NCBI GenBank assembly: GCA_964449215.1
Contig: CAYVAH010000001.1
Coordinates: forward strand, 32,865-96,864
DNA: 64,000 nt
From: Candidatus Undinarchaeota archaeon
Lineage (GTDB): Archaea; SpSt-1190
Reading direction: 5' to 3'
Part shown: positions 2-37,331 of the stretch, piece after piece
Layout: every line of letters starts with the position of its first letter
How positions within the stretch are numbered: the stretch's first letter is position 1
The notes under the pieces: generated by a model
Database searches by the model: none
What the model saw: the letters and a program-made list of their open reading frames with translations, nothing else
What the model was told of the DNA's origin: nothing
Translations under genes and position numbers: made by a program

Positions 2-3000
2 ACCACCCTGAACATCACAGAGATAAGATATACCTGGAAATATGGTATGCTCTTCAATGAAAGTCAAAATGCATTCACCAGGCTGAAAATATACGAGTAT
101 GTTCCCCTGATGGAAAATGCCACACTCTACATAAATGGAAACAGCAGCAGGACAACAGGGGGCTGGGGAGAAAACTTCACCCATTCACTCTGGGTAAGGG
201 ATCGCTTCGGGAGGAATGTATCGGTGTATTTCTGGCACAGGATTGTGGGCAATGAATGGGTGCTCGTGGACAACAGCACCTGTGCCTCCTGCGGAAGCTG
301 GACCCAGATGAATTTCAGCTACAACTACCAGCCGGATGACATAAACACCTGGGAATTCAAGTTCAACGCCACGAACGATGACGGGAACAACAGCCTTGAA
401 GGTTTTGTATATGTTGTCGAGAGGGACGACGTCATCCTGAACTTAAACAAGCCGGAGAATTATGAAATTGTAAACAGGAGCGGATCATATACATTCTCCA
501 CGCGGATATATGACACAGATAATCAGACATACCCGGATGGAACAATAGGAAAAATCTTTGTGTCAATATTCGACCAGAAAAACTTTGAAGACTCACCACC
601 GCCGCTATCCGCATCGGATGGCTGGCTGAACCGCACCGTAACCAATGATGACTGGTGCTCAAATGAAGGATGGTACTATCTGGGGAACCATAGCTGGTAT
701 ACCGCCACCACAGGGGACCAGTACATAAAGGACAACTCCAGCGCCGTAAGGAATTTCACCCTGATGGGAACCCTCAGTAACACAATCACCGAGTTGATAG
801 GGGAAAACGTGAGCAAAGAATACAACTCAACTGTAATAATAGAAGGGAATGTAACAACTGATTGTGGCGTGACTGTCACTTCACCAACCGCGAAGTTTAA
901 CCTCACCAATGGCCAGTATTACTGGGAGTGCACGGGGACTCCTGTCGGCAATACCTACCAATGCAACTTCCCAACATCTTCCGCACCCTATGGGTGGTAT
1001 AACATAACAATGCTTTCAAATCAGAGCCTTTATTGGGATGGATTTGCACAGCAAGTTGCTTCATTTTATCTGGCGAGCGTGCCGGATGTGAATGCAAGTG
1101 TTGACAACCTCGAGGCTCCCTGGGGGAAGAGCCCGTTCAATTTCACGTCATATGTCACGGACCAGGACAATGATACGGTGACCATCAGGTTCTGGCTCAA
1201 GAAAGGTTCAGGATCCTGGGACAATGAACACACAGACACCAAATCAAACACCAGCAACTATCTCACATATTACGAACGCACATTCACCTGCCCCGGCCCA
1301 AATGACGTTGGCACGTGGTACTTCAAAGTCAACGCAACAGATACGTCCGGCTACTGGAACGAAACCTCAATTATTCAGTTCAACGTCACCAAAGAGCCAA
1401 TCTGGGTGATGCACTACCTCGGCGATGGAAAAACAATCAACAGGAGCGATAACGAACCGGATACCCAAACACGGCTGGCCGTCAGGCTTTATGACTACAT
1501 TCTCAACACCAACCGCACAGATCTACTGGATTCAAATGTGCTCTTCTGGGTAAATGGCACATCATTCGTATCAACTCTGAACAGCAGTGGTAAAAACTAC
1601 TACCACGACTACAAACCGACCTGCTCATTCCCGGCAGGAAATCTCAGCTGGAAAGCCAATTTCTCGGGGGAATCCTGCTATGCTGACAATTCGAGTGTTA
1701 ACTTTAATATTGTTGTGATGGGGACTCTCAATGGCAGCCTCATCGTGCCAGACGGCAATACCAACTATTCGCAAGGCGAACTCTTCAACATCACCCTCAA
1801 CTTGACAGACGACTGCAATCAGACCATTGGGGATGCAGATGTGTGGTTTAACCTCACAAATACAAGAACGGGTGACTGGTATAGGTGCCCATCAAGTGGC
1901 TACGCACAATTCAACGGCACTTACTATCTATGCGAAGTCAATACTTCCGAATTCAAGGGCGGCTGGTTTGACATATATGTGAATGCAACAAGGCAGTATC
2001 ACTGGTCATACATCAAAAACTATCAAAATATCTATTTCCAGATAACGCCCGTTACTTTGAGTTCGCCACAACACAGCGCTCCGGGTGATGGCGGGTGGGG
2101 TGAGAACCACAGCTTCTCTGTGATAGTGGACCACTATGCGGATGTCCAGGTGTGCCTACTGGAAGACCTCGGAAGTGGATGGGAAATAACAGAGTGCAAG
2201 TCAATCCCGCAACCAACCAACCAGCAGGTCTTCTTCTACAGGACATACGACTGTGGGCCCGCGAGCAGCTTCGTTTCATATAAATTCAATGCAAGTGAAC
2301 CGGGAGTGCCAAGCACGCTCTCAAACACAACATCACAGAACCATTTCATCCAGAAGGATGACGTCCAGATTGTATACATAAAGGGCAATGAAAGCACGGT
2401 CAACAGGAGCAGTGGATACACCCCCTTCATCCTCCTGATAAACGACACAGACAAAGGAGAACCCGCTCCGTATGTCCAGAGCTATGATTCCCCAAGGGTC
2501 AGGTTCTTCGTCCACAATGGAACAACTTACCTTGAGGATGGAAGCAACGTGACAAACTCATCAGGTTATGTGGAATACAGATTCAACCCGAGTTGCAGCT
2601 ATGAGAGAGGTAGGGCAACCTGGTACGGATCAACAACCCTTGATGCCTGTTACAAAGCCGAGAACTCAGGCACCTACAACGTCACAATCCTGGCGGACAT
2701 TGCACCGAACATAACCTATCCAAATGGCGAAACTTTCTACAGGCTGGCTTCTCTGGTGATAAACATAACAGTTGAATACAAAGACGAATGTGGATTGCAT
2801 TACCTGAATGCAAGTGCTAACTACACCCTGATAAGCAGAGGGTTCGGAACCCACTATAACTGCACAAGCATAGATGACTACGAAAATGGCACTCAAATCT
2901 GCCATTTCGATGCGTCGTTTGCGGATCAGGGATACTATGATGTGAACATCACTGCATGGGGTGTTGAATACCACAACAATGCCACTTATCGGAAGAACAA

Positions 3001-6000
3001 GACATTCAACCTCATACAACTGTGGAAGCCACCAGTCCTCCAGAATGAGACAGTGACTCCTGAGCAGGATGGAGGTTGGGGAGAAAACTTCACGTTCTCC
3101 GTGAATGTAAGTGATGAGAACGCTGAAGACGTGAATGTTAGTTTGTGGCTGAGTCCGGACAACTCAACCTGGGAGTGGATCGAAACCCAGACCTGCTATG
3201 ACTGCGGTTCAATAACTCAACTTGATTTCAATTACAGGGATTATGACTGCTCTGATAAAGGGACGCAGTATTTCAAGTTCAACGCCACCGATTCCCACAA
3301 CTCAACTGACCGAACTGGATTGAACTTCACCGTATATGCCGATGATGTCCAGTTCTTATATGAGGGCCTCTCCACAGGAAACGATACAACTGTGAACAGG
3401 TGGGCGGGACAGTTGCTGAAAATAAGGGTCTATGACCCTGACAATGAAACCTATCTGCCAGATTCTGAAAACACACGATTCTGGGTCACCACTGATGGAT
3501 CGTCCTGGGGTGCCCCGATGGACTCTCAGACAGACAGCAGTTACACCAACGTTACCTTTACACCCGACTGCAACTATCAAGTCGGTCCACAGCTCTGGAA
3601 GGTCGGGACATTCGGAAATAACTGCTACAAAGACACCAATTCCACACTCCATCTCACCACGACAATAACTGGCTACATGTCACTCACAATTGACCAGCCC
3701 TCAGGTGAAATGTTCTTTGAAGGTGATAACGTCACAACCCGTGCGAACATCACAGATGAGTGCGGGTCCCCAACAATAGCAGATGCCACCGTAGCGTTCA
3801 ACGTCTCTCATGACAGTTTTTCAGCCCAGTGCAAACCCGTGCAGAACGAAGGAACAGGATGGTATAACTGCACCTGGAACGTCACCGGGTCTCCCGGCGG
3901 CTGGTACAGCGTGGGAATGAACGCAAGCAGGCAGTATTACAACAACGCCTCCACTATCAAGACAAATGCATTCTTCCATGAGATTGCACCTGTCCTGAGC
4001 GGTGAATATGTCACACCGAATGAAAGTCACTGGGGGACGGAATACACCTTCAAAGTGAATGTGACTGATGAAGATGACACGGTAAGAGTGAAGCTGTACC
4101 ACCGAAAATGGCCATCAACGCTGTGGTCCGAAGTCGAAACGCAGTATTGCAGCGACTGTGTAAACAAGACGCTGACCTTCAAGAGGACCTACACCCAGAC
4201 CGAGATAGGGACATGGGAATGGAAGTTCACCTCAACCGACGATGATCTCTGGTTCAACACGAGCGTCCACAACCTGACTGTGAATAAGAGGAATGTTATA
4301 GTGGAATACTACAGAGGAAACGAAAGCAACGTAACAAGATACGGCGATAATTCAACGCTGTTAACACTCGTGGTCAAGGACGCCGTCTCTAACTCCCCAA
4401 TAGGTCAGGGTCTGGATGGTGGTTTTTGGGTCACGACCAACGGCACAAGTTGGGGACCCAAAATCCCGGAGTCCACCGAAGAGGGAAGCTATCTCAACCA
4501 CAGCTTCAAGCCGGACTGCACCTATCAGACAGGAAAACAGAAATGGAAGGGCGGTGTCGATGAAAGCACGTACTACTACGCCGGTAACTCCTCGGAATAT
4601 AACGTGAGCATATACTCAATAATCAACGGAACCATAAATATCCCGAATGGCACCCGAATGGTGAGGGGCAGCGTTCTGGAAATCTATGGAGATGTCGGAG
4701 ACGAGTGCCCAGGTCTTACCAAGGGTGCAACAGTGAAATACAGGATATACAAGGGAATTGAGTTCATCCCGTCACCTGACCCGGCAAACGACCTGAACAA
4801 CGGCACATACAACGCCAGCTGGGACACCACAGGAGCAGCCCTGGGATGGTACAATATTACAATGAACATCTCAAAGGAATATCATTTCGATTATTACAGG
4901 AAGAAAGTTAATGCGTTCTATCTTGGATCGGGCACGGAGCTGCGCAATCCCTGGGTGGACAACTCACAGGACGGGTGGGGGTACAACTACACCTTCAAAG
5001 TTGAGGTCAGGGATGTTGAAAACGACGTGACAAATGTGAGCCTGTGGTATTCCAATTCATCCAGCGGGCCGTGGAAGTTGATAGACTGGCAGGAGATTCA
5101 GACCACCGTGTTCGAGAATGTTACATTCCACCACAGCTTCGAGTGCCAGGACTATTTTGACGGACCCACCACATATTACAAGTTCCTGGCAAATGACTCG
5201 AATGGTTTCATGGACGAAACTTCCCCACAGACAATCATACTCGAGCAGGATGACCTAGGATTCATAATAGAATCTGGATCAGGGGCCAGCATAGACAGGG
5301 AAGGAATCAACCCGTTTACATTCATAGTCAGCATAAACGACACAGATGCTGGAAAACTCGTTGGGGAGGGATTAAATGGCAGTTTCTACTTCACATACGA
5401 TTCCACGGAATTTGATGCAGGTCACAACACGACAACCAACGCCACCGGACAGATTCTCTACGACCACGACCCGAACTGCACATACACCACAGGGGTCCAG
5501 CTGTGGTATGTATCAATGCATGACAATGCCTGCTACAAGGACACGGATATGGGAACAAGCACATATTCCGTGATAGGCCAGCTAAAGAACAACATAGACA
5601 TTCCTATATTTGGTTCGGAGTTCAACGTCACGAACCGGATACTTATAAGATTCAACGTAACATCGGACTGTGAAGAGGAAGGAGGAATAAATGACACCAG
5701 CTCTGTGGAAATAACACCGAAGCATAATGGCACAGGAACGGAATACTCCTGCAGCGAGAATAATGAAGGTGATGGTTACTACAACTGCAGCTGGGACAGC
5801 ACAGGAAAACCGGAAGGAAACTACACCATAATTCTTCAGAGTTCCAAGGGCTCCTACAATTCCAACACCACAATACTGATGAACTGGTTCTGGCTGGAAA
5901 ATCTACCAACAAACTACACCCGCCAGTGGGTCAGCCCCAGCACTGGAGGTTGGGGTGAGAAATTCCAGTTCAACGTAACCGTGAATGACACGGAAGGGGA

Positions 6001-9000
6001 CACGGTCACCTGCAAGCTCTATGTGAACACGAGTGATGGCTTCGTTTACAAAGGGACGGACACAATCACAGGCACTGCCGGAATTGACACGGTAGGAAAC
6101 TGCTCTGTGGAAGTGAATGACTTCTCCTGTGGAGAGCAAGGGACTGCCGAATTCAAGTGGGAAATAACTGACGGAACAGCAAGCAATCCGTTGAACACCA
6201 CTGTGACGAGCGGACCCACCATAGAGCAGGACGATACCGTGACAGAATATCTCCTCGGAAACGGCTCCTATGTCAACAGATCAGGAGGTGTGACCGAACT
6301 TATTTTGAGGATAAATGACACCGATAGAGGAATTTATGTCCAGTCAAACGGAACTGTCTGGGTGTATGACGGTTCATACTTCCCGTGGAGCAACCGCTCC
6401 AACTCGACAGGACACCTGAAAATAGAGTTCACACCCGATTGTTCCTATTCCGCTGGGCTGTGGAACTGGGTTGGAGGCGCACATGGCGATGACTGCTACA
6501 AGGACTCCAACGTCAGCGGATACCTGGTCGTGAACATAACTGGGTGGATGAACACCAATGTGATAAACCCGGATGGAGAAAAATTCCTCAGGGGAACCAA
6601 CATAACAATATGGGCGAATGTGAGTGATGAGTGCAACAACTCGGTGGTTGGAGTCGCCCTCAACTTCACCATGAGAAGTGACCAGACCGGAAGCCTCTAC
6701 TACTGTGCCCCAATATATGATGAAGGAACGGGATACTACAACTGCACTTTCAACACCAGTGGAATGGACACGCAGTGGTATGACATAATCAGCAATTCCT
6801 CACGCCAGTACTTCAACCCGGCCAGTGACACCAAGGATAACGCGTTCTGGGTTGAAACTGCACCATTCCTGTTCGCACCTTTAGTGGACCCGGGTGTTGG
6901 AGGTTGGGGAGAAACATTTTCACCGAAGGTCAATGTAACGGATTATGACTATGATGATCTTACAGTAACCTGCGAGAAACGAAAGAACGGGACCAGCACA
7001 TGGTACTCCTGCGGCGCTCAAGGCAAGAAAGGAATAAACCAGCAAGCGGTGTTCTCCACCACATTTTCATCCGCCGATATAGGCAACTGGACAATCCGGT
7101 TCAATGTTACCGAGGATGACGGTGACATATGGAATGACACAATCGAAACCAACTTCACACTCGAGAAGGATGATACTGAAATACATTATGTGGATGGCAA
7201 TGAGAGCAGTGTAAACCGTGTATCCGGAATAGCTCAGCTCAAGCTCAAAGCAGTGGATACGGACAATTCCGGGCAGCAGATATCCTCCCAGCCAGCGGCA
7301 ATCTGGGTAACCACCGACGGATCCACTTGGGGGAGTGCATGGACGACCTCAACCCTCACAGATGGAACCATATCCGTTGACTTCAATCCCGGTTGCGAAT
7401 ATGATGTGGGCAAGCAAAAATGGAGGGGAGGACTCCGGCTGAATGATTACTGGAAGATGTCCAACTCCAGCGAGTTTAATGTGACCATAACCTCGGAAGC
7501 CAAGCCATACATAATAAAGCCGAAGAGCAAAATAGCCCTGAGAGGTGTAAATGATATTGAGCTGAAGGGGAACCTTACCGACCTGGGTGACTGCGGGCTG
7601 GTTTCCGGAGGTTCACTGAGCTTCTTTGTTCCAAGTGAGAATTACTATGAATGCTCTGCCACGGACCTCGGGAACGGGAACTACAGCTGCACAATACCTG
7701 CTGCAACCACGGGGAGCTGGGCATACGGCTGGCATAACCTGACATTCAACGGGACCCGCGAATATTTTGCCGTGTATAATGACACCGTGGTGGATTCGTT
7801 CTACCTTGCGGACGACCCCGAGCTGATAAATCCACATGTGAGTCAATCAAGCGTCCCGTGGGGAACCCAGCTAAACTTTGACGTAACCTTGATAGACCTC
7901 GATCCAGACAACAAGACGGTATATTTCTGGATAAAGAGACCCGGGCAGGACTGGAAACTCGAGAACAGCACTCTATATGTTGGAGCTACTGATGGTGACG
8001 GGGAGCTCATACAGTTCCCATTCATGACAAACTGCTCCGATGTTGGAACTGACTACTTCAAGTTCAACGTTACAGACACCTCCGGGTATAATGATACCAC
8101 TTCAGGGACGGACCAGTTCACAATACAGGAGCACGGAGCATTGCTGATAATAGAAGGTGGTGCAGGGGACGATGTCAGAAGAGAGGGAGACAACTTCGCC
8201 AACCTGAGTGTCAGGGTAAGAGACCAGACCACCGCAGAATATGTCGGCGCGGGAGTGAACGGAAGTTTCTGGATACCCAACAAGACAGAAAATGAAACAA
8301 TATTTGTCCAAACCAATGGGTCAGGGTATTTCAACTACCAGTTTAACCCGAACTGCACTCATGACATAGGCACACTGAACTGGAAGGTTGGGGTGGTCAA
8401 TGACATGTGCTATGTCGATGTTAACACAAGCTCCACCGTAAATGTTTATGGGCAGCTGAAGAACAATTTGCTGCTGCCGGCTTATGATGATAGCTACAAT
8501 GTGATGGACCCTGTGCCGGTGAGGTTCAACGTCTCGACAGACTGCCCGGGAGAAGGGCTTGTGGAGAATGCGACCACAACCGTGGAAATGGTGTCTCCAG
8601 GGTCCGGGGCGTTCGCATGCACACCTGTGCATAATGAAAGCGGCGGGTGGTACAACTGCACCTGGGACAGCACGGGAATGGAAGAGGGATACTGGGACAT
8701 TCGGCTGAACAGCAGCAATGAGTATTTTGACGACAACTCAAGCACATATGGGAACTGGTTCTGGCTGGAGAATGTGCCGGTGACGGCAGAAAACAGCACC
8801 GTCTGGGTGATGAACTGGACGGTGGGGGGGTGGGAATCCGCCAATCTGAGTGAGAGGCATGGGTGGACCAGAGAATTCAATTTCACCATAAACGTCAATG
8901 ATACAGAAGGCGATAATGTTACCTGCAGGCTCTGGATAAAACACAATTCTACGGGAGAGTGGAGCATTGCCGGGAGTGACGCCATTCAGGGCACACCCGG

Positions 9001-12000
9001 GATCCCAACCCAAGGGGAATGCAACGTCAGTTACCAGGGATTCTCCTGTGCGGATATAGGCACGAACGACTTCCTGTGGGAACTACAGGACGGGGAAACC
9101 GCAAACTACTGGAACACCAGCATAGAAAGTTTGAAGCTCAGGGAATCGGAAACAAATATAACAATAAGCGCAGGAGACGGCATGCAGATAGACAGGAACT
9201 ATGAGACTCTACCAATGACCGTTTTCGTATTCGACAAGGACAACAATGAATGGACCAGTGGAGTAAATGTAAGTTTCTGGGTCAGTCATGATAATCTGAA
9301 TCCTGAGCTTGACACCGTAAAGAAAACATCCGCTGGAAATGCCACATACTGGTTCTCCCCCGATTGCTCATATACCGTTGGCATCCAGAACTGGATGGCC
9401 GGGGTAAGTGATGGTTGCTTCCAGGACGTCAACACCAGCCAGTCAACAGCAACAATCTTTGGAACCCAGACACACTACCTGCTCTCGCCTGATGGAGAAG
9501 CCAGTCTGCGCGGAACTAACGTGACAATTCGAGGCAACATCACAGACGACTGTGGAAACGGACTGGACGATGCATATGTGAACTTCACGATGACCAGTGA
9601 TTTCACGGGAGAAATGTTCTATTGTGCACCGATAAGCAACGAAGGAACCGGATACTACAACTGCACCTTCAACACCAGCGGGATGCCAGCACGCTGGTAT
9701 GACGTAACGCTCAACGCCTCGAGGGATTATCACCACGATGGAAACGAGAGCTGGGACAACAGCTTCTTTGTCTCGACCGAGCCCATACTCACAACACCAA
9801 AGGTCAACACAAGCACCTATGATGGGGATGATGGACCCGTCGGTGGATACTCTGAATTCTTCAATTTCTCCGTGGTTGTCACGGATGAGGATGGCGACAC
9901 TGTCACCGCGGATCTCTGGCTGCGGTTCTGGAACAAGACAACAAACAGCTGGAATAGCTGGACTCATGAAGGGTTAAAAATATGTGCAGACTGCAACAAC
10001 ACCGTGCTTTCATACACAAAATACAACTTCTTATGTGAAAATATGGGAACCTGGCAATACAAGTGGAACGCGACCGACCAGTCGGACAATCCACCGGGTG
10101 AGGGGATAGAATACTCTGATGAGGTCTCACCAAACAACTTTACTGTAGAAGAGGACGACATACTGATAGAATATTATGCGGGAAGCGGGGGGTGGATATG
10201 GAGAAACGGAACAGAAACTGCAACCCTCAGCACAAAAGTCTGGGACGTTGATGACCAGAGATACCTCTCTACAGGAGAGGCAAGCGGCACTATATGGATA
10301 ACAAGGGATGGAACCAACTGGGATGATGGAAACCTCCTTAGTGTGCTGGCAGGCTTCTTTAACTTCACGTTCCAGCCGGACTGCACAAACAATTACAGCG
10401 TAGGGTTACAAAACTGGATCTCGGGAACCACCGGAAACTCATGCTTCAAGAATGCAAACTCCTCCACTCACAACATTACACTGAAAACGTATATGACCGG
10501 CCAGAAAGACTATCCGGATGGTGATGCCTACGAGCGCGGGAAGCTTGTAAACTTCAGTTACTATGTGGAGGACGAGTGCTCAGTCGGTATAACTGAATTA
10601 ACAAGAACACTGAAACTCAAATCGGGAACTACAACATACACGATAACTTCCGGAATAACTGACCACGGCAACGGCACATACACATACAGCTGGGATTCTG
10701 AAGGTAAGGTCCTGGGGTGGTATAACACCTCATTTGAGGTCAGCAAGGAACATTACGTGCCACTTAACATATCTGATAGCGATGTTTTCTACCTTGGAGA
10801 ACCACCGGAGCTTCAACTCGAGAGTGTTGATAAAATACTTGGGGGTTGGGGGGAAAGCTGGCATTTCCAGGTTCAGTGCAGGGACCTCGAGGGAGACACA
10901 GACATGGTCTACCTCTGGCTTAAAAAGAACTCCACAGCCCAGTGGGAGCTCCGCTCTCAACAATCCTGCACATCCACATCCTTCCTCATCCTGGACTTCT
11001 ATGACAATTACACCTGTGACTACATAACCCCACAAGCAGATAACACACTGTGGAAGTTCAACGCGAGTGATCAGTGGAACTTCACAGACGAAACCCCCGA
11101 ACACACAATAACCATAGAAAAGGATGATGTCAGCATAGAGCACGTATCAGGACATCTTGGCAACGTTGATAGAGAAGGTTTTGGCACAGTGACCCTTGCA
11201 GTGCGCGCCTACGACCCGGATAAGCTTGAATATCTCCCGGCTGGCAGGAGTGGAACAGTTTATGTAACAACGGACGGCTCCAGCTGGGACTCCGGAAACA
11301 CCAACAGCACGGACTCTTCCGGGAACGTCTATTTCATATTCAACCCCAACTGCTCCTATGGAACAGGAATCCAGAAGTGGCGGGGTGGAATAGAGGGAGA
11401 CTCCTGCTATAAGGATAGCTTCAGTCCTGACTTCACCCTGACAGTTTATGGTCAGCTAAAGATAGCACTTGACCAGCCACCGGAAGGAAGCACCTACCAG
11501 ACAACGGAAATCGTTGATATTCGACTGAATGTGAGCACTGATTGCCAGGATGAAGGACTCCTGAACGACTCCACGGTCAATATCACGTTGAACTCGCCGC
11601 TGGATGATTCAGAGTCCTGCACCCCTGTGAATAATGAAGGCGATGGTTACTACAACTGCAGCTGGGACACAACACTCAAGATGCCCGGATACTGGGACAT
11701 TTTCACCAACGCCTCGAGGGAGTATTACCATCACAACTACACGCAATACAACGACTGGATAGAGCTGAAGAACTCCCCGACCCAATACAGCGATATGAAT
11801 GTCACTCCCCAAGTCTCCGGGTGGGGAGACCTTTATAACTACTCTGTCAACATCAGCGATCCGGACTTCGACTCCGTAAACTGCACCCTGTATATATCCA
11901 CAAACGGTGGATCAAGCTATCAATCAATCGACACGATGATCCTGCCGGGTGGTAATGGAACCTGCTATTTCGAGAAGGAATACTCCTGTGATGACATTGG

Positions 12001-15000
12001 CGAGGACAACTATTTCTATTTCGTACTGAAGGACGGTTATAACTTGGTCCAAACGGATACCGTGCAGGGACCAAACATAACAAAGGACACACTGTCCATA
12101 CAGCATGAAACCGGGGACGGTGGAGAGGTCAACAGGAGCGTTAACTCTCTCACACTGAGGGTCAACGTAACGGACCTCGACAAAGAAACAATCGCTGATG
12201 ACAACATAGTTGTGTATTTCAATATCACCACCGACGGCACGAACTACATACTTGAGGACCAGGATAACACCACCCAGGGTAAAGCAAGCATAGATTTCGG
12301 TCCGGACTGCACCTATGATGTTGGGAACCAGAAATGGTTCGCATACACCGAAAACACCACCTGCTACTACCCGGCCAACACCAGCGAATTCAACCTCACA
12401 ATCATTGGCAAGCTCCAGAACACAGTAATTCTGCCAAATGGAACCGAACACTATATTGGTGAGGATAATGTCACCATACGGGTAAATGTGACAGATGACT
12501 GCGGTGACCTGATAGATGCTGAATACATAAACTTCAGTTCAATAAATCAGGACAGTTCGCAGAAATTTTACTGCTCGCCGATAGTTCATGAAGGGACGGG
12601 CTACTACAACTGCACCTTCAACACCAGCGGGATGCCAACAAGATGGTATGACGTCGAGGTGCACTCAAACCTGACATTCCACACCCTGAGCACAGCCACA
12701 CGAACAAGCGCGTTCTGGATAGAAACGCGACCAACGATATCCCTTGTGTCTGTAACCTCAGAACAGGGCGGATCGGTCGGCGGCTGGGGAGAAACATGGA
12801 CATACAAGGTGAACATAACGGACCTCGACAAGGACGAGGTAAAGGCATACCTTTGGGAGAGACCTGCCGGTGGGGAATTCCATCTGATATCTCCGTCAGG
12901 CAAGAGTAAGCCAGCCGGGATAGCCACACAGATTGTCACATTCACATATGCAGGGTATTCCTGCACCGACCTCACCACAAGCGCCAACAGGGAGTGGTTC
13001 GTGAATGGAACAGATGATCCGTCCGGAGAAATCAAGGATCCCGCCAACACATCTGTCGGCAGCTTTACCCTTGAGAGAAATGACATATTGATCTCACTTG
13101 ATCAGGGGAATAACTCAATGCTCAACCGCAGCAACGTGACCAACGGAGAACGCGCCAAGCTACGGGTTCACATACAGGATACCGACAGGGGCAGTTCAAT
13201 AAACACACAAGACACCGCGAAATTCTGGGTAACCACTGACGGGTCCAGCTATGCACTTGATAAGCAGACAACAACCGTTGAGCCTGGTGGGTATGTCAGT
13301 GACAATTTCCCAACTGCCAACAAATGCAATTATGATATTGGACCACAGAAATGGAAGGTTGACTTCGGGGAAACCTGCTACAAACCAACCATGAGTGATG
13401 AATGGAACATAACGCTATTCACCAATCCGCTAATGGTGACCTTGTACGAGCCAGATGGTGGAACATACAGGCAAAGTGAAGATGACATAAATTTCACGGG
13501 AATGGTTTCCGACGACTGTGGTGGAGTCGCAGGAGCAACTGTTGAGTTCAAGGCAAAACAGGGTCCCGAGACCAAATCGTGCACCTCCATCAACGACAAA
13601 GGAAACGGTAATTACAGCTGCACAATCCCCGCTTCCTCGACATCAACCTGGATTCTTGGATTTTACAACACGACGATAAACGCAAGTAAGCAATACTATA
13701 ACTCAAGCGATGTTCTACAAATTGATGATGGTCTGAAACTCGTAACGGATCCTTCTATAGAAAACATGCAAGTTTCAACGAGTGACTCCAACAATCCATT
13801 TGGGTGGGGGGAACTATGGACCTTCGAAGTCCAGCTATATGACAGTGACCAGGACACATACAACTTCGAAAAGGTGAACGTCAGTCTGAACTACTACAAC
13901 GGAACAAAATGGGTTGTTCTGAACACAACAATATGCAGTGCTCCAGACTGCGCAACAACATCTTTCATCGACTTCTACAGGTACTTCACCTGCGACAACA
14001 TTGGAACGGACATACCATTCAGCTTCACAGCCGAGGACTACTGGGGTTACAAAACAACCTACAACTTCACACAGACCATAACAAAAGATGACGCAGAGAT
14101 AACAATAACCCTGCAGCCTTCAAGCGTTGACAGAGAAGGTGGGATGGAAACGTTGCAGGCGCGTGTGTTTGACAAAGATCATTTCGTGTATCCGGGTACC
14201 GGTGTCAACACAAGCTTTGAAGTCACCTACGATGGCAGTAACTTCGACACACCTGTGTATAAGGCCACAGATTCGGGAAGTTACGCCTCTTACGATTTCA
14301 ATCCAAATTGCAGCTATGGAGTTGGCCAGCAGACATGGAAAGTAAGCGTACTGACTGACAGGTGCTACTCCTCATCATTCCTTGGATCTCCCTCGGCATT
14401 CATCACAGTGCTCGGTCAACTCAAGAATAACCTCATGGAACCTGAGAATGGATCAAGCTTCAACATACTTGTGGATTCTGTCTTCCTGAGGCTCAACATA
14501 AGCACCGACTGCCAGGGCGAAGGTCTCCAAGAAAATGCCACCACCACTATCGAGCTAATCTCTCCATATGGTCAGGTCTATAACTGTACTCCTGTGAAAA
14601 ACGAAACAGGAGGGTACTACAACTGCACCTGGGACACAACAGGAAAAGCTGAAGGGTGGTGGGATGTACGACTGAATTCAAGCAAGCAGAACTACAACAA
14701 GAATTCCACAACATACTGTGATAGATTCTGGCTCGAGAATTCCCCGCCAACCACCCAGAATGAAACCATACGGGTATTCAACTACAGCTCGGGAAGCTGG
14801 TACAACAGCCTCACCGGAGCCTGGAGCGCCCTCTACAATTATTCCATAAACGTGACAGACTTTGAGGGAGATGAAATAAACTGCAGCCTGTGGATAAGTA
14901 AGGACAACGGAACCAGCTGGGAGATGGTAGGTTATGACTTCCACTCGGCAACATACGGAACCACGAACAATGTCTATTGCTCCGTGGTGTATCAGGGCTT

Positions 15001-18000
15001 TGACTGTGGTGACATAGACACACCTGAAAACGGGTCATGGATCCCTGAGAAGGCAAAGAAGTTCAAGTGGACCATAATGGACAGCACCCCGGGGAACACT
15101 TATAACACGAGTTACAGATGGGGACCGAATGTTACGGAGGCCCGGGCTAGAATCGAACACATGGAAGGCAACAACAGTCTGTTCATAAGAAATCAGGATA
15201 CCAAACCACTTGTAGTGAATGTGTTCGACCTGGATAAAAATGCCTCTGCCACAAGCAATGTGTCATTCTGGGTAACCACCGATGCCTCATCATTCCGCCT
15301 TGAACTCACCAACAGGTCGGGCCCGGACGGCAACGCAACCTACTGGTTTGCCCCGAACTGCGACCACCTCGTTGGACCGAGCTACTACTACCAGAAGTGG
15401 AAAGCCATGATCAATGATGGGTGCTATCTCGAGAAAAACACCACAGAGTTCCAATATCGTCTTGTTGGATTCCTATCACCACAGATAACAGCCACAAGAA
15501 ATGAAACTCTTGATGCGAGAACAATCTTCCTGCGCGGAACCAATGTAACTGTGAATATCAGTGTGGATGACGAGTGCTCCGTTAATGTGGACAATGTTGA
15601 AATGAACGTAAGCCTCGTCAGCCAGTACGGAAATACATTCACATGCTCTCCGATTGATGAGCTCGGATCAGGGGAGTATAGCTGTGAACAAAACACAACG
15701 GGGATGCCAGCTCGCTGGTACAACATAACCGCCAGCTTCACATACCAGCCGTGGTACCTTGACGCTAATGCAAGCAAGACCTCTCCAATGAGTGGATACG
15801 GGTATGGTGCATTCTTCATAGAAACCAAGCCAATTCTCTCACTCGAAAAAGTAAACACGAGCAATTATGATGGAGATGATGGACCTGTCGGTGGGTACTC
15901 TGAATTATTCAATTACACTGTCAGGGTCACAGATGAAGATGGAGACCAGGTCAAGGTTCAACTCTGGTACAGCAAGTGGTTAGACCCCGGTTGGGGAGAC
16001 TGGGAGAAATTACTTACGACATCGACGAGCTCCGGAGGATCAGGGGTGAACTTCGCAACGTGCACCGACTGCAACAACACACTTGTATGGCTTGCAAAGG
16101 ACAATTACCTTTGCTCTGAGATGAGCAAATACAGATTCAAGATAAACGCAACGGATGAAATTGGATCCCCCGGAGGGTATGACTCTGAAAGCAATACATA
16201 TGGCTATGAAACCTCGGACCACAACTACACTGTTGAGGAAGATGATGTTGAAGTCCTGCACAGCAAAGGTAATGGATCCACAGTATGGAGAAACGGAACC
16301 GCCTCGACAACACTCGAGACGTATGTATTCGACATCGATGACCAGTCGAATCTCAGCGTGGGCGAAGCCCGCGGCAGACTGTGGATGACAAAGGACCACA
16401 GCAATTATGAGTTCATATCGACTCTTGACCTGCAGGGATCCCCGGGAGAAACAGGATATTTCACATATGACTTCTACCCGGACTGCACCTATGATGTCGG
16501 TAAACAGAAATGGATTGTGGAAACAGCCCCGATGCCGGGAACAACCTGCTATAAGTTCGTGAATTCCTCGGAGTTCGAAACGACACCAAGAGGTTTTCTC
16601 AACATGACAATAAACCTACCTGATGGTGAATATGTGGAGAGATATGAAGACAATGTCACTGTTGATTTCTATGTCTATGATGACTGTAATCAAGGAAAGA
16701 GCGGAACTGTAACTCAGATTAGGTTCATACACCCGCAGGAAACATACATCATCTATGATGCCTCAATAACCGACCACGGCAACGGCACATATACCTACGT
16801 CTGGGACCCGGACGTTGGAGGGGCGAAAATTGGACAGTACAATATAAGTATTGACTCGGACTACGAAAACTACTATGACCCCTACTATGAGAATACCACA
16901 GGATTCAAAGAGAAGGCATTCTGGATTCAGACAAGGCCAAGCCTCTGGAGCCCGACGGTGTTCAGCGTTGATGATGGCGGCTGGGGAGAGACGTGGACAT
17001 ACCAAGTGTATTGCAGGGACGAAGACTACGACAACATAAGCCTGTTGCTGTGGAAAAAGAAGGATTCAAGCTCAGAATGGGTGCTGATAGACACAAAATA
17101 CTGTCAATACTCGGGAATTGACGGCACCATAATCAGTTTCCAGAACAATTACTTCACCTGTGATGACGTAACACCCGAAGGGGAACAAACACTCTGGAAA
17201 ATAAACACAACAGACCCTTGGAACTTTAACCAAAGCACGGGAGACCAGACCCAGACAATACACAAGGATGACGTCAGTGTATTTCCATATTACCCGACAA
17301 AAACTGAAATTTCACGGGAAGGCCCGGACAATACAACATTCAAGTTCTCCATCTCGGATACAGACAGAGGGAATGCACCTGTAGGAGCAAACATAAGTTC
17401 TGTGGCCTGGGTCACATCCAACATAGCCTCAGAGTCGGGGGACTGGACAGTAGTTTCCCTGAACAAGACAGTAAGCGACTCTTCAGTCACATTCCTGTTC
17501 AATCCAAACTGCAGCCATAACGCCAGCTACCTGCTGTGGAAGGGTGGAACCTTCAACGACAGCTGCTACAAGGATGCCAACTTCTCAACCTCGTTCTACA
17601 GTTCCAAGAGCAAGATACACGTAATAGGACAGCTCAAGAACTTCATAAACCACCCGCCAAATGGAAGCAAGTTCTTTGTGGGAGAGCTCATAAACTTCAC
17701 CTTCAATGTAACAGATGAGTGCTACTCAAACTGGGGACCCATAGAGAACGCAACCGTGAACTTCAGCATAATTCTCCCGGGGATACAGCAGGACAACTAC
17801 ACTCAGGACGACTTGACTTATGTCGGTAATGGACTCTACAACTTCTCGTGGAACACCTACTTCCACAAGGGAGGGTACTGGGACATTGAGGTATTCACAA
17901 ACAAGACCCACTACTATGCGAATACCACCTATTTCGACAATTATCTCTATCTCAACAACACCCCACCACTTGTGGAAAACTTTTCCGTGACACCCGCTGT

Positions 18001-21000
18001 TGAAGGCTGGGGCAGAACCTTCACATACAGCGCGGACATCTACGACTCCCAGAAGGACAATGTAACCTGCAAACTCTTTGTCACCACAGACGGGGGATCG
18101 AACTGGGAATACAAAGGGGAACAGGTCATCTACTGGGGTAATGGAACCTGCGAAATTAACGTCACTGACTTCGACTGTTCTGACAGAGGGACTGACAACT
18201 ACTACCGCTTCCAGATAGATGATGGAACGGAAGGAAACCTCAGGAATACCACCGATATTTACGGGCCGAACATCACGGAGGACGATGTTGGTGTCTATTA
18301 TGCATACGGGAATGCCACAAATGTGAGCCGCAAGGGAACCAACTATACGAGCCTTTCATTTCTAGTCACGGATCTAGATAGAGGAAACATCACAGTGAGC
18401 GACGCTAACGGGACGTTCTGGATAACCCGAAATGGGGTAACATATGTCACACAACCTGTCGTCCAGACCAATTCGAGTGGATATGTGGTCTACCAGTTCA
18501 ACCCCGACTGTGACCCGCTGTATGAAACCATGGTCCAGAAATGGAAAGCAGGGGTTGTCGACGGCTGCTATGTGGACACCAACCTAACAGATACCTACGA
18601 ACTTACAGTGATGGGAGACCTCACCAACAATCTTGATTATATATACAAGAACAGCATACCCACAGCACCGCCAGTGAATCTGACAAAAGGCGAGGAGGAC
18701 CTGATAGCGGACATCCATGTGACGGACGATTGTGGACTCGACATAAGCTCGGCAAGCGTCAATATAAGCTGGATAAGCGAATATGGAAACAGGTACAATT
18801 GCACGGTGAGTGACAGCGGGAATGGCATATACAAGTGCAACATGCCAACCGACGCGATGAAGGCAAGGTGGTATGACATTGAAATAAATTCATCCAAGCA
18901 ACCCTATTATTATGACAGCCTGAACACCCTACAACAGAATGTGCTTTTCCTCGAGACCCGCCCGATAGTTACAAACCTCACGTGCCTCAACTGCCCGGGT
19001 GGGTGGGGCGAAACCTTCTATTTCGCCACCACACTCACCGACGAAGACCTTGACAACCTCACACTCAAGCTGTTTGTCCGCAAGCCAGGAACCGGCTTCT
19101 TCTACGAGATGAACTCAACAAACGTCACAGCTCCAATAATAAACAAGACCGTCGTGCTTTCAGTCCCGGATACCACCTTTGAATGCCCAACTCATCTTGG
19201 AACTGGAGAATTCCGCTTTGAGTCACAGGATGACAGAAAACTCACTCAGAGCAACACAACCAACTATACCGTGGAAAGGGACGACGTGAGATTCGAAGTC
19301 TCGGAAGGGGACGGAGACTTTGTGTGGAGGAACGGCACGGGAGCACTGAACCTCAGCCTTGTTGTGTGGGATGACGACAGAAACACCACAATATCTGGAA
19401 TACAGGGAACAGTATGGGTGACTGTGAACCAGAGCTCCTGGGACTCCGGCAAGGGTATTGGGACCAATGGTTCAGGATACCTTAACTATGAATTCATGAA
19501 TGAGCTCCCGCCAGGGGGGCAGAGATGTGACTATGAACTTGGACCACAGTGGTGGCGCGGGTGGGTGAATGACAGCTGCTACAAGGACACATACTCCCAA
19601 AACTACTCACTCACAATAAGGGCGGAACTCCTCCCAGTCATACATATCCCAGACGGCGAAGGTTATCTGCTCGGTGACCACATACTGGTGGCAGGAACCG
19701 TATCGGATGACTGCCCACCGCCTGTGGAAAATGCCACCGTGACCTACAAGCTCAAGAGGGGCAGCAACACATACACCTGCAGCCCAACAAACAGCTATAA
19801 CTGGACCGAGAATCTTGGGTGGTATAACTGCACCTGGGACGCCGGGTCGAGGGTGAAGGGCTGGTATGATATTGAAATGCAGACCAGCAAGGCATACTAT
19901 GCTGATAACTCGACAACCAAGGTCCAGGCATTCTTCCTTGGTGAAGCACCAACCCTGGAGAACCCGCAGGTGGATCACGACTATGGAGGCTGGGGCGAGG
20001 AGTATGTGTTCCAGGTAATATTCAGCGACCCCGATTACCACAGCAACAACGTCTCACTGTGGGTGAGCTCTGATAATGTGACATGGTGGCTAAAGGACTG
20101 GAAGAGTGCCATAGGCGTGGACACAACGGTCCAGTTCTTCGAAAGGTTCACCTGTGATGACATAAGCTCCTTCCCGGATGGTGTGAAATACTGGAAGGTT
20201 CGCGCTGTCGACCCGTTCAATTACAGTGATGAAACCCAGCCAAAGAACATAACATTCATAAGGGATGACGTGACCGTGACCCCGCAGGCAACAAGCAACT
20301 CGTCAATCAGGAGGATGGGAACTGGCGAAGCATACCTGGAATTCAGGATATATGACACCGACCTTGGGGTTTACCCGAATGAAAGTTCCACCAGAGTGTG
20401 GATAACCGAGAACTTCACGAATTACAGTGTGGTGAAGAGCTGCAACTCCACAAACGGGTATTGCAACGTCAGCTGGGACCCGACCTGCACTGCAGAAGCA
20501 GGTGTGCAAAACTGGGTGGCAGGAACCATGGACAAATGCTACCAGCAGGTCAACTCGACTCCAACGGACCTGGAGGTAATAGGCCAGCTCTACCTGCAGC
20601 CGAACCAGCCCGAGTATCACGAGATAGTGAACCGAAACACCACAACGGAGATGAACACCAGCGTAACGGATGAGTGTGGAAACTACGTGGAAAATGCAAC
20701 TGTCATCTGGTATAATGAGATATGGGACCAGATTGCCTCCGGCTATTACGCGAACTGGAGCATCGCCGCGGGCTACGAACTCGGATCGGAAACAATAAAC
20801 GTGAACGCCACCAAGACGCACTACGATGAGGGGACCAACTCCACAGTCGTGTATGTTTACGGGTGGAGCTCCATAACGGACATAAGTCCGGAAAGTGGAA
20901 GCGAGTTCGACGCAGGAAATTCCATCGTGGTTGACTGCACCGTGAAGGATGCCAACATAGGGAGCCCGATCCCGGGATACAGTGTTGATTTCTTCAAGAA

Positions 21001-24000
21001 CGGCACGTATCAAGACACAAAGGTCACACAACCAAATGGAGTGGCAACCTGGCAGTGGAACACCAACACTGAACCGCCCAGCTGGTTCAACATAAGCTGC
21101 CGCATAAATGACAGCTCCACCATGTTCTACAACACCTCGGTGGACACGGCATCGACAATGATCCGGATAAGGAGACCCTTGATATTCGAATACATAAGCA
21201 CTGTTCCGGGAACAATATACCGGAATGACTCTTATAACCCCCACGAAAGCAACATAAGTGTCAAGGTCGTAGAGGCACAGACAGGGCCAAGCGATGGTGC
21301 AAATGTAACATTCTACAACCAGACCTACTCACTCATAGACTACTGCATCACAAACTCTGACGGGAAGTGCTGGATACTTTACAATGCCACCAACACAATC
21401 ACCCCAGACATCTACAGGATATACCTGAATGCCACAAAGGATGGGACAGAGCCCTCTGTAACCAACTACACCTCCGTGAAGGTTATGGGTGTCCTGTATC
21501 TTAACATAACCAGCCCCGTGAACGGGAGTGAACACAACAAGGGAGAAACAATAGACCTGACAGTGGATGTGTGGGACGAAAACAACAACACCATAACTTC
21601 AGCAGATGCATACTGGTGGAATGAAACTGACATGGTGGGACAGGGGCTGTCAACCACTCTGAACCTGAAAACACAGCAGACGGGGTGGAGAAACATAAGC
21701 GTTGAGGTCAGAAAAGACTGCGCCAGCTATCCCGGAACGGAATGCTATGACAGGGCTTGGAACTATTCAATAATAAAAATAAACGGGCTCGCTGGGGTTA
21801 AGTGGGTATCCCCGCCAAGCTATGCGAACCCGCCGTGGTATGAGCTCACAATTTATGTCCCATACAACTTCACCTGCAATGTATATGATGAAATAACAGG
21901 CAATGGCATTTACAACTACACCACAAATGTCTGGTACCGATTCGGAACAGGACCATGGATCCACGCTGGAACCCTCCAGTCCAACATTGACGGGGACGTG
22001 AGCTACACATACGAGCCGAACCAAAAGGGAGACCTGACATTCAAGTGCAACATAACAGATGACCCGGACAAGCTGTATCAGGCAGGGGCGTCGGAAGCGA
22101 GTGCAACATTCAACGTTAAGGATAATGTGCTACCGACCATTGAGGATAATTACATCTACCCGACCTACGGGATTGAAGCTAACCTCAACCATACCACAAT
22201 CTACGCCACAATAAGTGACAATATAGGGATAAGTGCCACCTGGGTCTCTATAGAGCTGCCAAACGGGACATACTTCACGGACAGCATGGTAAGATACCCG
22301 GATGTCGTTGTTGACAAGAAAATCTCCGACCAGAACTCCACAGGATTCACCCACGTTGAGAATGCCAGTGAGCCTGGAGAAATGAAACATTTCAACGTGA
22401 CCATACACAACAATGAATCCTTCAATGTCTATTTCAACCTGACAATCAATGGAGAGCTTGTGTTCCCGAATGTGACAGCGAGCGCCGGAAGCAACACCAC
22501 CGTGGACGCCGTGGAGAATCACAGCTTTTCGCTTCCGGAGCCACTTGACGTGGAGGTCCAGTTCTTCAACGGAACAGGAGAACCAGTGAACGTGAGTCAT
22601 GTTGCATTCCTGGACTACCGGCTTAGCTCCTACAGATACAACTACAGTTATTACCCGGAAATCGGCGGAAACTACAATGTCACCATATATGCACAGGACC
22701 TGCCCCCTGAGAGCAATATACAGAGCAAGTTCACCGGCTCCTTCTATGTGTGGGGAACCACAAATGTAACAGCGAAAAACACGCCCAAGTTTGATGTTGC
22801 TGTGGGTATCACCCAGATCAATAGCTACACGTTCCAGCTGGTGGCAAACATAACCAACAATGGACCTGCAAACGCCTGGAATGTCAGCATGAACATAACG
22901 GACGATTCCTGGAACTACACGGAATACTGGAATGGCACCCACCAGCAAACGTATTTCTACTGCGGGAAGATTCCCGCAAACAAGTCGTGTGTAATCCCAA
23001 TAAACGTAACAATAAAGGAGAAAACCCCGCCTGTTGTCATCATTATAACCTCCAACGTCAGCTGGAGAAACCCGGACAAGAGCTGGAACTACACCTCGGA
23101 CACAACCGAGGTGGAAGTCGCCGACACGCCAGTAATAGAAATACTTGAAGATGAGCTGATCGCACAGGCACCACACGGTATGAGGAGCTATCTTGGCAAC
23201 CTAACAATAGCTTCCACGGGTAACTCGCCTGTGTTCGATCTGGAGGTCTTCCCGGTCGGTGGGAACCTGTTCTACGAGTGCCCCGAATGCAATTTAATAC
23301 TGTTCCCGGACTCCCAGGGGATAATGAATGCCGGAACGAATTACACGATGGACGTGGAACTCGACGTTCCGGGTGGCCAGACTCCCGGGGAATACTGGAC
23401 GGTAATCCGCGCAAACACTAGCAACGCCGCCTACGACGATGCATTATTGAATGTAACAATCCCGTGGAACAGTAGCTGGACCCGCTCGCCCTCTGGGCTC
23501 GGGACCATACTGGCACTGCTGAACACAAATGACACCATAGGGAATGTCACCATAAAGAACATAGGGAATGTCAGGGTGTATGTCACCACATACATAAGCG
23601 GTGCGGGAGCCACCCTCGTGACCGCGGAACCAAGGACCATGGGAATATCAAAGCTCACGTCGAGAAACCTCACAGTGAGTTACAGCATACCGCCGGATAT
23701 CTCGCAGGGACTTTTCCCCGTGCAACTAACACTAAGGGCAAAGGACGAAAAGGGAGACGATGCCGGACAGGAAACGGTCACATTCACTCTGAATGTCACG
23801 GACCTCCCACCAGCCATAGAAAACATCTATGTGGAACCACGGGACTTTGAAATATATCATGATGTTGTGAACATCTCCGCCACAATTACAGACAACTTTG
23901 AGGTCAGTCTGGCTTGGCTCAACATAACCCTTCCAAACGGCACATTTTACAGGAAATACATGAATAACACAGGGTCATTCTATTTCTCAGATTACAGCAC

Positions 24001-28387: not shown

Positions 28388-29085
28388 AATGTCTGGTGGC
28401 GATGATGCTCCTGGCCGGAACATTCGCCCTCAGCTTCAGTTATGATGGCGAAGTTTTCGTGACCCCCGGTGAGGAAAGAGTGGTGAAGATATACCTGCAG
28501 AGCGAAAATGAAAGTGGAGTTTACCCTGTCACCTGCTCCTCAAGTATTTCTGTGAAATGTCCGAACTACGTGAGGATAAACCCGGGATCGGAAACCTTCG
28601 TTGCCCTGGAGCTCACAGCGGGAATCGGGCGGCATCTGGTGAATGTCTCGATAGGAGGGAGACCAATACGGTTTGTCGTTGAGTCTTCGAACCACACAGA
28701 TGTGTTTTACAATATGCTCCAGAGATACAACAACAGTTTTTTCAGGCTCGAAGCAAGGTATGGAAAGAGTGAACTCCTTGACCTGGGGAAGCTCCTGGTT
28801 TCGGAGGGGTTCTCCCACTACAAAAAAGGGGAATATCCTGCAGTCAAAGGAATTCTGGAAAATCTCGAGACGCTGCTCGGTGAATATTATGCCTCCATTG
28901 GAACCGTGGAGGAACAGCCAGCCAGACTTGAGCTGTCTTTCATTCCCCTCCTCCTAGTTGGAGGAATGCTCGGGGCTTACACCATTGCAACAAGGAAGCC
29001 GAAGAGAAACTCCGGGGCAGGGGAACTGAGCAAACTTATGGAAAAGGAGTTTGGAGGTGGAGTTGTTGGCAAAAAAGAAGACTAA
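28384..29085 (+). CDS. Small secreted/membrane-anchored protein (N-terminal signal peptide, C-terminal TM anchor), translationally coupled to the giant gene
   Basis: ATGA start/stop overlap with the giant ORF. N-terminus MKCLVAMMLLAGTFALS is signal-peptide-like. C-terminal LSFIPLLLVGGMLGAYTIATRKPKR is a TM plus stop-transfer. No recognisable family. Confidence 0.6.
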   Translation: MKCLVAMMLLAGTFALSFSYDGEVFVTPGEERVVKIYLQSENESGVYPVTCSSSISVKCPNYVRINPGSETFVALELTAGIGRHLVNVSIGGRPIRFVVESSNHTDVFYNMLQRYNNSFFRLEARYGKSELLDLGKLLVSEGFSHYKKGEYPAVKGILENLETLLGEYYASIGTVEEQPARLELSFIPLLLVGGMLGAYTIATRKPKRNSGAGELSKLMEKEFGGGVVGKKED

Positions 29086-37229: not shown

Positions 37230-37331
37230 GCCCCGGTAGCTTAGCGGCAGAGCGCCTGGCTGTTACCCCGTTTCGGGTCACGGAGCGGGACAGAAACCAG
37301 GCGGTCGCAGGTTCGAATCCTGCCCGGGGCG
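37230..37331 (+). tRNA. tRNA-Asn (anticodon GTT) with a 30-nt intron at the canonical 37/38 position (37266-37295)
   Basis: Hand-folded. Acceptor GCCCCGG/CCGGGGC, D-stem GCTT/GAGC, anticodon stem CCTGG/CCAGG, loop CU-GTT-A, intron ccccgtttcgggtcacggagcgggacagaa, T-arm GCAGG-TTCGAAT-CCTGC, discriminator G, no encoded CCA. Confidence 0.75.

Follow-up and report, generated by a model that had tools for sequence, protein, structure and literature searches.

What is the long array of repeated protein units at the left of this archaeal locus for, and to what kind of protein does it belong? The stretch studied (the window) is 64,000 nucleotides (nt) of contig CAYVAH010000001.1 (assembly GCA_964449215.1, positions 32,865 to 96,864), from the Candidatus Undinarchaeota archaeon SpSt-1190, and its left part is taken up by one giant open reading frame (ORF) on the plus strand that carries 21 tandem units of three domains each. 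With a probability of roughly 0.7 the array is the extracellular stalk of a giant surface protein of the SPEARE type, in which it would act as a rigid, glycosylated and length-setting spacer that presents a head to a partner. An earlier sequence-only reading of the window had picked out the array and overlooked that it is part, as the probable stalk, of one giant transmembrane protein with a C-terminal ATPase; the enrichment in sequons and the super-repeat of three units also escaped it.

The units themselves are well defined. GGWGE-like motifs occur 21 times, at amino acids (aa) 38, 358, 682, 1009, 1328, 1643, 1967, 2285, 2604, 2939, 3266, 3599, 3925, 4245, 4586, 4924, 5282, 5644, 5987, 6318 and 6647, and PDC, CYKD and YNCTW-like motifs keep register with them along the array. 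A hidden Markov model (HMM) of the unit, used for self-comparison, gives exactly 21 full-length copies of 265-375 bits each, with weak partial matches only past aa 6930, and the unit length is 315-362 aa (945-1086 nt). The about 21 tandem units, the period and the fixed motif grammar claimed by the sequence-only reading are thus borne out, and the grammar proves to be a family signature, since 439 homologues of the unit, spread over 152 other proteins, conserve it: W26 is retained in 92% of them, D38 in 82%, R131 in 92%, D145 in 95%, C191 in 95%, W200 in 98%, C254 in 93% and Y288 in 85%. Within the 21-unit alignment six columns are invariant (D39, R134, D146, C191, W200 and C255 in the numbering of unit U04). 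The limits first given for the array need correction at both ends. An end at nt 20250 cuts through unit 21, the real end lying at about nt 20,836-20,881, and the ATG at nt 47 is not the start of the protein: the frame is already open at nt 2 without an upstream stop and the first residues of the ORF in the window have no signal peptide, so that the ORF must be truncated by the left edge of the window.

Outside the motifs the units are far apart. Pairwise protein identity is 19-45% (mean 27%) and codon-aligned DNA identity 36-54% (mean 42%), with third codon positions at ~32%, near saturation; Tandem Repeats Finder detects no ~1-kb array, and the direct repeats present are only motif-coding stretches of 25-140 nt at 60-90% identity. 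Near-identity of the units at the DNA level, set beforehand as the outcome that would have told against an old array, is therefore not what is seen, and the proposal of an old, constrained array rather than an artefact or a recent amplification holds on the strength of the DNA identities, the near-saturated third positions and the existence of collinear orthologues. Each unit has a positional orthologue in other genomes at 50-81% identity, as against 30-46% to its best paralogue, and the order is collinear. The contiguous array of the orthologues opens with the counterpart of U01, after 350-800 aa without units, and so the 21 units are probably the whole main array.

The divergence is not uniform along the array, and identity between units is higher at lags of 3, 6, 9 and 12. 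Same-phase pairs average 29.6% identity against 25.8% for the others (permutation p <= 5e-5), and from U04 on the best partners of nearly every unit are in phase. Three classes follow one another: b (U04, U07, U10, U13, U16, U19), g (U05, U08, U11, U14, U17, U20) and a (U06, U09, U12, U15, U18, U21). Class-specific HMMs find the same b-g-a order in homologues, one of which (P0027) reads ..bgabgabgabgabga, with P0030, P0031, P0038 and others alike. Because the period-3 classes seen here recur in the same order there, the ancestral building block was thus of three units and nine domains, ~975 aa. The array would have grown through duplication of this b-g-a block, and its length would differ between lineages by whole triplets; more distant homologues go from U06 to U10, with exactly one triplet skipped. 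Super-repeat and positional orthology together give a rule for the growth and shrinkage of the stalk, by whole triplets. There is selection against misfolding between adjacent similar domains, and the low identity of neighbouring units fits it.

An AlphaFold2 model of the unit, made with the 21 units themselves as the input alignment, is all-beta, with three sandwich domains, a predicted local distance difference score (pLDDT) of 92.3 and a predicted template modelling score of 0.78. The model puts the units in the Ig-like (immunoglobulin-like) beta-sandwich fold, and in global comparison Foldseek places extended tandem-Ig rods first, namely ICAM-5 and, from a large adhesion protein, the extender 6xi3, at template modelling scores (TM-scores) of 0.42-0.43; the ice-binding adhesin 5irb is a weaker match at 0.29-0.30. 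By hhalign, domain A is a homologue of domain B (probability 92.5%, E 4.8e-7), and homology of domain C to either is not detectable. In sequence searches no Pfam family is above threshold on any of the 21 units, and a profile search of PDB sequences with the unit finds nothing below E 0.1; the best cadherin similarity is to cadherin-23 at E 0.7, with no Pfam cadherin match. Big_7 gives sub-threshold matches to domain C in 8/21 units (best E 0.002; U04 at 16.7 bits against a 24.1-bit cut-off) and Big_1 matches 3/21 units, the gathering thresholds of Big_1, Big_7 and Invasin_D3 not being reached, and domain C may be remotely Big_7-like.

Cysteines and acidic loops are candidate stabilising features. 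The proposal of one disulfide per domain is clean for domain B, where the Cys of PDC occurs in 21/21 and that of CYKD in 18/21 units; it is less clean for domain C, which has three conserved Cys (in 21, 16 and 16 of 21 units), or for domain A, which has one conserved Cys together with class-specific partners that include a CxxC. The acidic loops, DxDxD in domain A and DxD in domain B, lie in the hairpin immediately after the second strand of their domain, with positions 38, 40 and 42 conserved at 83%, 68% and 69%, and positions 145 and 147 at 95% and 75%. From strand order alone, and given a standard Ig-like topology, these loops would be at the N-terminal tip, beside the preceding domain. The N-terminal tip of Ig-like domains is the place of Ca2+ binding in cadherins and in bacterial Ig-like adhesins, and binding of Ca2+ by these loops, which would stiffen the rod, is plausible from their position in the fold. 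A thioester protein of the complement/alpha-2-macroglobulin kind was considered and rejected, as the unit model is all-beta with no helical thioester domain. Unlike the macroglobulin domains of C3/C5 and the alpha-2-macroglobulins, to which global TM-scores are ~0.3, the unit goes with no thioester domain, and the macroglobulin-like Pfam matches (MG2, MG4) are weak and outside the array. CGEQ occurs once, at aa 2028-2031 (nt 6128-6139) in a variable loop of U07 domain A; no other unit has it, and it looks like chance.

The array is one part of a much longer polypeptide. From the ATG at nt 47 the ORF runs to nt 28387 (9,446 aa), and an independent 65.6-kb ENA contig (ERZ27248458:k141_149502) has the gene wholly inside it, with a called length of 14,690 aa, by which ~5,244 aa of the protein lie upstream of the window. 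Window nt 18384-35375 is matched gap-free at 99.95-99.98% identity in four other assemblies. Antisense ORFs within the gene (for example 8494-8985 and 9443-9967, minus strand) are wholly inside the conserved coding frame. Past the array the chain continues as other beta-sandwich domains for ~2,000 aa, crosses the membrane by one helix and leads into an ATPase in the cytoplasm. In this post-array region Big_7 is just over its Pfam cut-off (24.7 against 24.1 bits), MG2 and NPCBM_assoc pass theirs as summed whole-protein scores only, MG4 and CarboxypepD_reg stay below, and no internal repeats are found at BLASTP E 1e-3.

Topology signals place the array outside the cell. The transmembrane helix is the sole hydrophobic window of the ORF; the ectodomain carries 480 N-x-S/T sequons where 143±10 are expected from composition-matched shuffles, with 61% of its Asn in sequons, and the 426 residues from the membrane onward hold none. 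When 460 units are aligned, sequons recur at thirteen positions, in 35-62% of the units. The isoelectric point (pI) is 4.3 for the ectodomain and 9.5 for the cytoplasmic part. Sequons and pI are patterned as expected for an archaeal N-glycosylated surface protein, glycan occupancy being a prediction from sequence.

For the cytoplasmic domain Pfam gives DUF87 at 38.6 bits (cut-off 23.2 bits), and among PDB sequences HerA (4d2i) is matched at E 2.4e-9. Its model (pLDDT 87) is closest by Foldseek to the same hexameric HerA (E 9e-12), followed by TcpA, FtsK and the viral packaging ATPase STIV2 B204, and the RecA-like core has an intact Walker A motif (GATGSGKT) as well as an intact Walker B motif (VLIVFDEVH). 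This common core, with its Walker motifs and DUF87 similarity, is that of the HerA/FtsK superfamily (Sulfolobus HerA 4d2i, FtsK, the coupling proteins TcpA/TrwB and CedD); unlike those translocases the ATPase here is fused to a giant ectodomain and is without a HAS-barrel. A canonical HerA helicase of DNA-end resection was rejected: there is no room for a HAS-barrel in the ~58 aa between the transmembrane helix and Walker A. NCBIfam scores are all far under their cut-offs (43.8 and 25.8 bits for HerA, against 800 and 970), and none of NurA, Mre11 and Rad50 is among the 20 neighbouring ORFs scanned. The probable role of the ATPase is that of a translocase ring at the stalk's base. Named homologues of the C-terminal part, at 34-48% identity, are from Aenigmatarchaeota, Woesearchaeota and Nanohaloarchaea (46% for the last).

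Relatives are numerous. Searched exhaustively with a profile of the unit, a set of 1.84 billion proteins yields 1,085 representative ones at E <= 1e-3; E is <= 1e-30 for 353 of them, and many carry tandem full-length units, up to 17. The metagenome search with a family HMM that had been suggested for this array has thus given over 1,000 protein clusters. Among species-level genomes, relatives of the unit occur in ones labelled Aenigmatarchaeota, Nanohaloarchaea, Nanoarchaeota, Woesearchaeota and Norongarragalinales. The large homologues combine a signal peptide or N-terminal anchor with a head of ~100-3,000 aa without units, 2-17 units, a transmembrane helix and a Walker A motif. Pfam scans of N-terminal pieces find Peptidase_S8 and an RCC1 propeller in the head of a complete homologue (P0041) and DUF2341 in that of another (P0045), and short versions of 836-1,324 aa carry the same C-terminal module. 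In a metagenome-assembled genome (MAG) of Woesearchaeota (L046, 4926-10961) an 836-aa protein with the transmembrane helix and ATPase is followed by three small genes and then by an ORF of at least 3,027 aa; module and giant ectodomain may there exist also as separate genes.

The closest described class is that of the SPEARE proteins of Nanohaloarchaeota, which are giant and mostly extracellular, with one C-terminal transmembrane segment and a conserved intracellular domain (Hamm et al., PMC6642349), sequences like the latter having been noted in Woesearchaeota, Aenigmarchaeota, Micrarchaeota and Altiarchaeales (PMC6642349). The intracellular domain was first called a restriction endonuclease and later reinterpreted as a VirB4/TraG-like ATPase (PMC10266531). 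Examples are NAR1_1133 of Ca. Nanohaloarchaeum antarcticus and SVXNc_0300 of Ca. Nanohalococcus occultus (PMC6642349, PMC10266531), the second being of 9,409 aa with ~75 Ig-like domains and two beta-propellers, for which a secretion 'straw' was proposed (PMC10266531). The protein here shares with these the huge, mostly extracellular polypeptide of tandem Ig-like domains and the single transmembrane helix near the C-terminus, followed by a cytoplasmic P-loop ATPase and then helices. The head of the class (signal peptide; protease, laminin-G or propeller modules) is present in unit-bearing homologues, some with subtilase and beta-propeller, the N-terminus of the present protein lying upstream of the window. 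Unlike the published descriptions (PMC6642349, PMC10266531) it has a defined ~320-aa tri-domain unit in a nine-domain b-g-a super-repeat, and its gene call is larger; unlike the nanohaloarchaeal proteins it is not acid-shifted for high salt beyond its pI of 4.3 and comes from an organism that is not a nanohaloarchaeon. On the features tested it fits the SPEARE-type class, except for a second ATPase gene downstream, the head being outside the window.

How such a protein might work can be put as follows. It would be exported N-terminus first, as the signal peptide or N-terminal anchor of its homologues suggests, and held in the membrane by its C-terminal helix, with the HerA/FtsK-type ATPase as its cytoplasmic end. 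The array would be a long, fairly rigid and protease-resistant spacer, stiffened and protected by dense N-glycosylation, conserved Cys pairs and conserved acidic loops. Tandem Ig-like rods measure ~3.3-4.5 nm per domain, and at that spacing the 63 domains would span ~200-280 nm. A head, made of subtilase, beta-propeller or LamG/DUF2341 modules in homologues, would then be held far from the cell, towards a host or a substrate, and an ATPase ring at the base of the stalk may move cargo.

Several points weigh against this account. Ca2+ binding, disulfide formation and glycosylation are all predicted rather than observed, and the head is assigned by analogy with homologues. The second VirB4/TraG-family ATPase gene reported downstream in SVXNc and BNXNv is absent, the two genes that follow here (of 233 and 392 aa) being without an ATPase match; in contrast to those loci a conserved Lys/Glu-rich coiled-coil gene takes its place. 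The nearest named relatives of the thermosome encoded in the window are in MAGs labelled Bathyarchaeota (88%) and Altiarchaeota (72-79%), and a role in host contact is less secure than in Nanohaloarchaeota because the thermosome is not nearest to classic episymbiotic DPANN lineages. Lastly each unit could bind a ligand through R131, D145, W200 and Y288, and the array would then not be a passive spacer.

This last point leads to the main rival of the stalk, a multivalent binding surface in which the unit, or the b-g-a triplet, would be a lectin-like or protein-binding module for glycans of a host envelope or for its S-layer, and the number of units would set avidity instead of reach. The four residues are polar or aromatic and near-invariant over the 460 units, and the conservation of each unit position between species suggests a unit-specific constraint beyond a spacer role. 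However conserved Trp, Cys, Arg and Asp are equally typical of structural cores, a dense glycan coat would tend to mask surfaces, and searches of Pfam and of PDB sequences with the unit give no significant match to a lectin family or to one that binds carbohydrate. The unit number also varies from 2 to at least 21 among homologues, which is likewise seen in the extenders of giant bacterial adhesins, and a binding array seems unlikely. A more speculative arrangement, doubtful on the present results, is that the b-g-a super-repeat is the structural period of a fibre or tube of six chains templated by a hexameric HerA-like ring, the tube being an ATP-driven conduit for DNA or protein between this archaeon and another cell; if so, dealing with the cargo inside the cytoplasm would fall to the Lys-rich tail together with the conserved Lys/Glu coiled-coil partner. 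Slightly less probable again is a component of the envelope akin to a surface layer (S-layer), with the units as sheath or canopy and the ATPase serving assembly: archaeal S-layer glycoproteins are likewise sequon-rich tandem beta-sandwiches with a C-terminal anchor, and a second large, sequon-rich, anchored protein adjoins (nt 30222-35903), but a polypeptide of ~1.6 MDa is poorly suited to a two-dimensional lattice, Pfam scans match no S-layer family, homologues have enzymatic or propeller heads, and S-layer proteins are not known to be fused to a cytoplasmic ATPase of translocase type. An assembly artefact or very recent amplification (a collapsed or expanded repeat), which might be suspected from the frequent fragmentation of assemblies by giant repetitive genes, from the partial state of most database homologues and from a related gene broken into pieces on a 1.1-Mb contig, is already refuted by the divergence of the units with near-saturated third codon positions, the lack of long direct repeats, 28 kb of frame without interruption, the four matching assemblies (>=99.95%), the whole gene on the independent contig and the collinear orthologues.

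Returning to the stalk, a further parallel is with the extenders of giant bacterial adhesins (LapA-type 6xi3, MpIBP 5irb, SiiE), which share tandem Ig-like beta-sandwiches modelled as an extended rod, acidic loops near domain junctions and a repeat number that differs between homologues. Bacterial extenders are usually made of near-identical single-domain repeats, whereas each unit here has three domains and is conserved in its own right, with a mean identity of 27% between units. The protein here is also archaeal and predicted to be N-glycosylated, and has a C-terminal transmembrane helix fused to an ATPase in contrast to type 1 secretion with outer-membrane retention.

What is new here is the defined tri-domain unit, the nine-domain super-repeat, the wide occurrence without a curated model and the size of the example. 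No genes of DPANN-type archaea are more distinctive or less understood than those for giant surface proteins, which are suspected in host contact; the unit, ~320 aa in three domains with a fixed motif grammar, gives the class a searchable module that no Pfam model or PDB sequence captures, and its HMM would allow fragmentary giant genes to be recognised and joined. A SPEARE-type protein is now found outside the halophilic lineages of first description, at a locus whose thermosome is nearest to Altiarchaeota-labelled MAGs, and its 14,690 aa put it among the archaeal proteins above 10,000 aa, which are reported to be rare (bioRxiv 10.1101/2023.11.21.568195).

Table. Coordinates of the giant gene, its units and the genes that adjoin it (window numbering)
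Feature	Position (nt)	Strand	Details
Single giant ORF	2..28387	+	open at left edge; at least 9,461 codons in window
Array of 21 tri-domain units (aa 14-6945)	86..20881	+	from motifs, alignment, HMM, AlphaFold
Unit motifs			domain A GGWGE...DxDxD; B VNRSG...FWVT.DG...PDC...CYKD; C DDC...YNCTW...WYD
U01-U03	86..2998	+	U01 86-1045, U02 1046-2017, U03 2018-2998; most divergent units, class not clearly assignable
Super-repeat 1	2999..5872	+	U04 2999-3955 (b), U05 3956-4900 (g), U06 4901-5872 (a)
U04 domains by AlphaFold model		+	A 3026-3343, B 3344-3706, C 3707-3955
Super-repeat 2	5873..8788	+	U07 5873-6826, U08 6827-7783, U09 7784-8788
Super-repeat 3	8789..11746	+	U10 8789-9769, U11 9770-10768, U12 10769-11746
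Super-repeat 4	11747..14743	+	U13 11747-12706, U14 12707-13729, U15 13730-14743
Super-repeat 5	14744..17932	+	U16 14744-15817, U17 15818-16903, U18 16904-17932
Super-repeat 6	17933..20881	+	U19 17933-18925, U20 18926-19912, U21 19913-20881
Post-array ectodomain, ~1,800 aa	20882..26320	+	other sequon-rich beta-sandwich domains (Pfam)
Gly/Ala-rich low-complexity linker	26321..26390	+	then Pro/Thr stretch and ~230-aa membrane-proximal beta-sandwich
Sole transmembrane helix (aa ~9023-9050)	27113..27196	+	basic stretch after it (positive-inside)
Cytoplasmic HerA/FtsK-superfamily P-loop ATPase	27284..28096	+	Walker A 27371-27394; Walker B 27749-27775
Lys-rich C-terminal tail	28304..28384	+	after helical bundle; low-confidence, likely disordered
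233-aa protein	28384..29085	+	signal peptide and C-terminal transmembrane segment; start overlaps stop codon of giant ORF (ATGA)
392-aa Lys/Glu-rich coiled-coil protein	29051..30229	+	
Second sequon-rich surface protein, 1,893 aa	30222..35903	-	convergent; signal peptide, NPCBM_assoc/MG2-like domains, C-terminal coiled coil and transmembrane segment

Of the genes directly downstream, that for the 233-aa protein is found only in copies of the same sequence, with no homologue in the related loci. Homologues of the 392-aa coiled-coil protein are encoded directly downstream of the giant gene in two distant relatives (L020, 12911-14824; L035, 13101-15026) and second downstream in a third (L045, 12153-12992), at BLASTP E ~1e-17; its own matches are weak and SMC-like only, and it may be a cytoplasmic partner of the ATPase. 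That the 233-aa and 392-aa genes are a split form of the 637-641-aa neighbour of the relatives was considered and rejected, because only the coiled-coil part is homologous and the N-terminus in the relatives is charged and of low complexity, without signal peptide or transmembrane segment. The convergent 1,893-aa protein matches NPCBM_assoc at E 2.4e-16, and its middle part resembles the post-array regions in L020, L035 and L040. On a 1,105,251-bp contig (L005; ENA ERZ25039515 contig_22876, 1-21314) a related giant gene is called in pieces of 3,990, 437 and 3,533 aa and more, which could be due either to decay of the gene or to frameshifts that arose in the assembly of long reads.

The further neighbours are archaeal and include a thermosome (with a 100% match in JGI and ENA metagenomes), the alpha and beta subunits of PheRS, CysRS, a DUF373 protein and an intron-containing tRNA. 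PheRS beta (46357-48003, minus strand) is a single 548-aa ORF with the B3_4, B5 and core domains. A split pheT is reported as a mark of Altiarchaeales (PMC4975002), and the single gene here conflicts with Altiarchaeota as nearest named relatives of the thermosome. Those relatives also brought the altiarchaeal hami, or grappling hooks, into consideration; they are rejected, as a single subunit protein polymerises in many copies to make up hami (PMC4460559) and as PheT here is unsplit. Four ORFs have no Pfam match at E <= 1e-3: 52649-55615 (minus strand, 988 aa), 55602-56684 (minus, 360 aa), 57440-59020 (plus, 526 aa) and 45267-46346 (minus, 359 aa). The tRNA (37230-37331, plus strand, 102 nt), an Rfam match missed by ARAGORN, has an anticodon loop around GTT followed by a ~30-nt insert and is thus an archaeal tRNA with an intron, probably for Asn.

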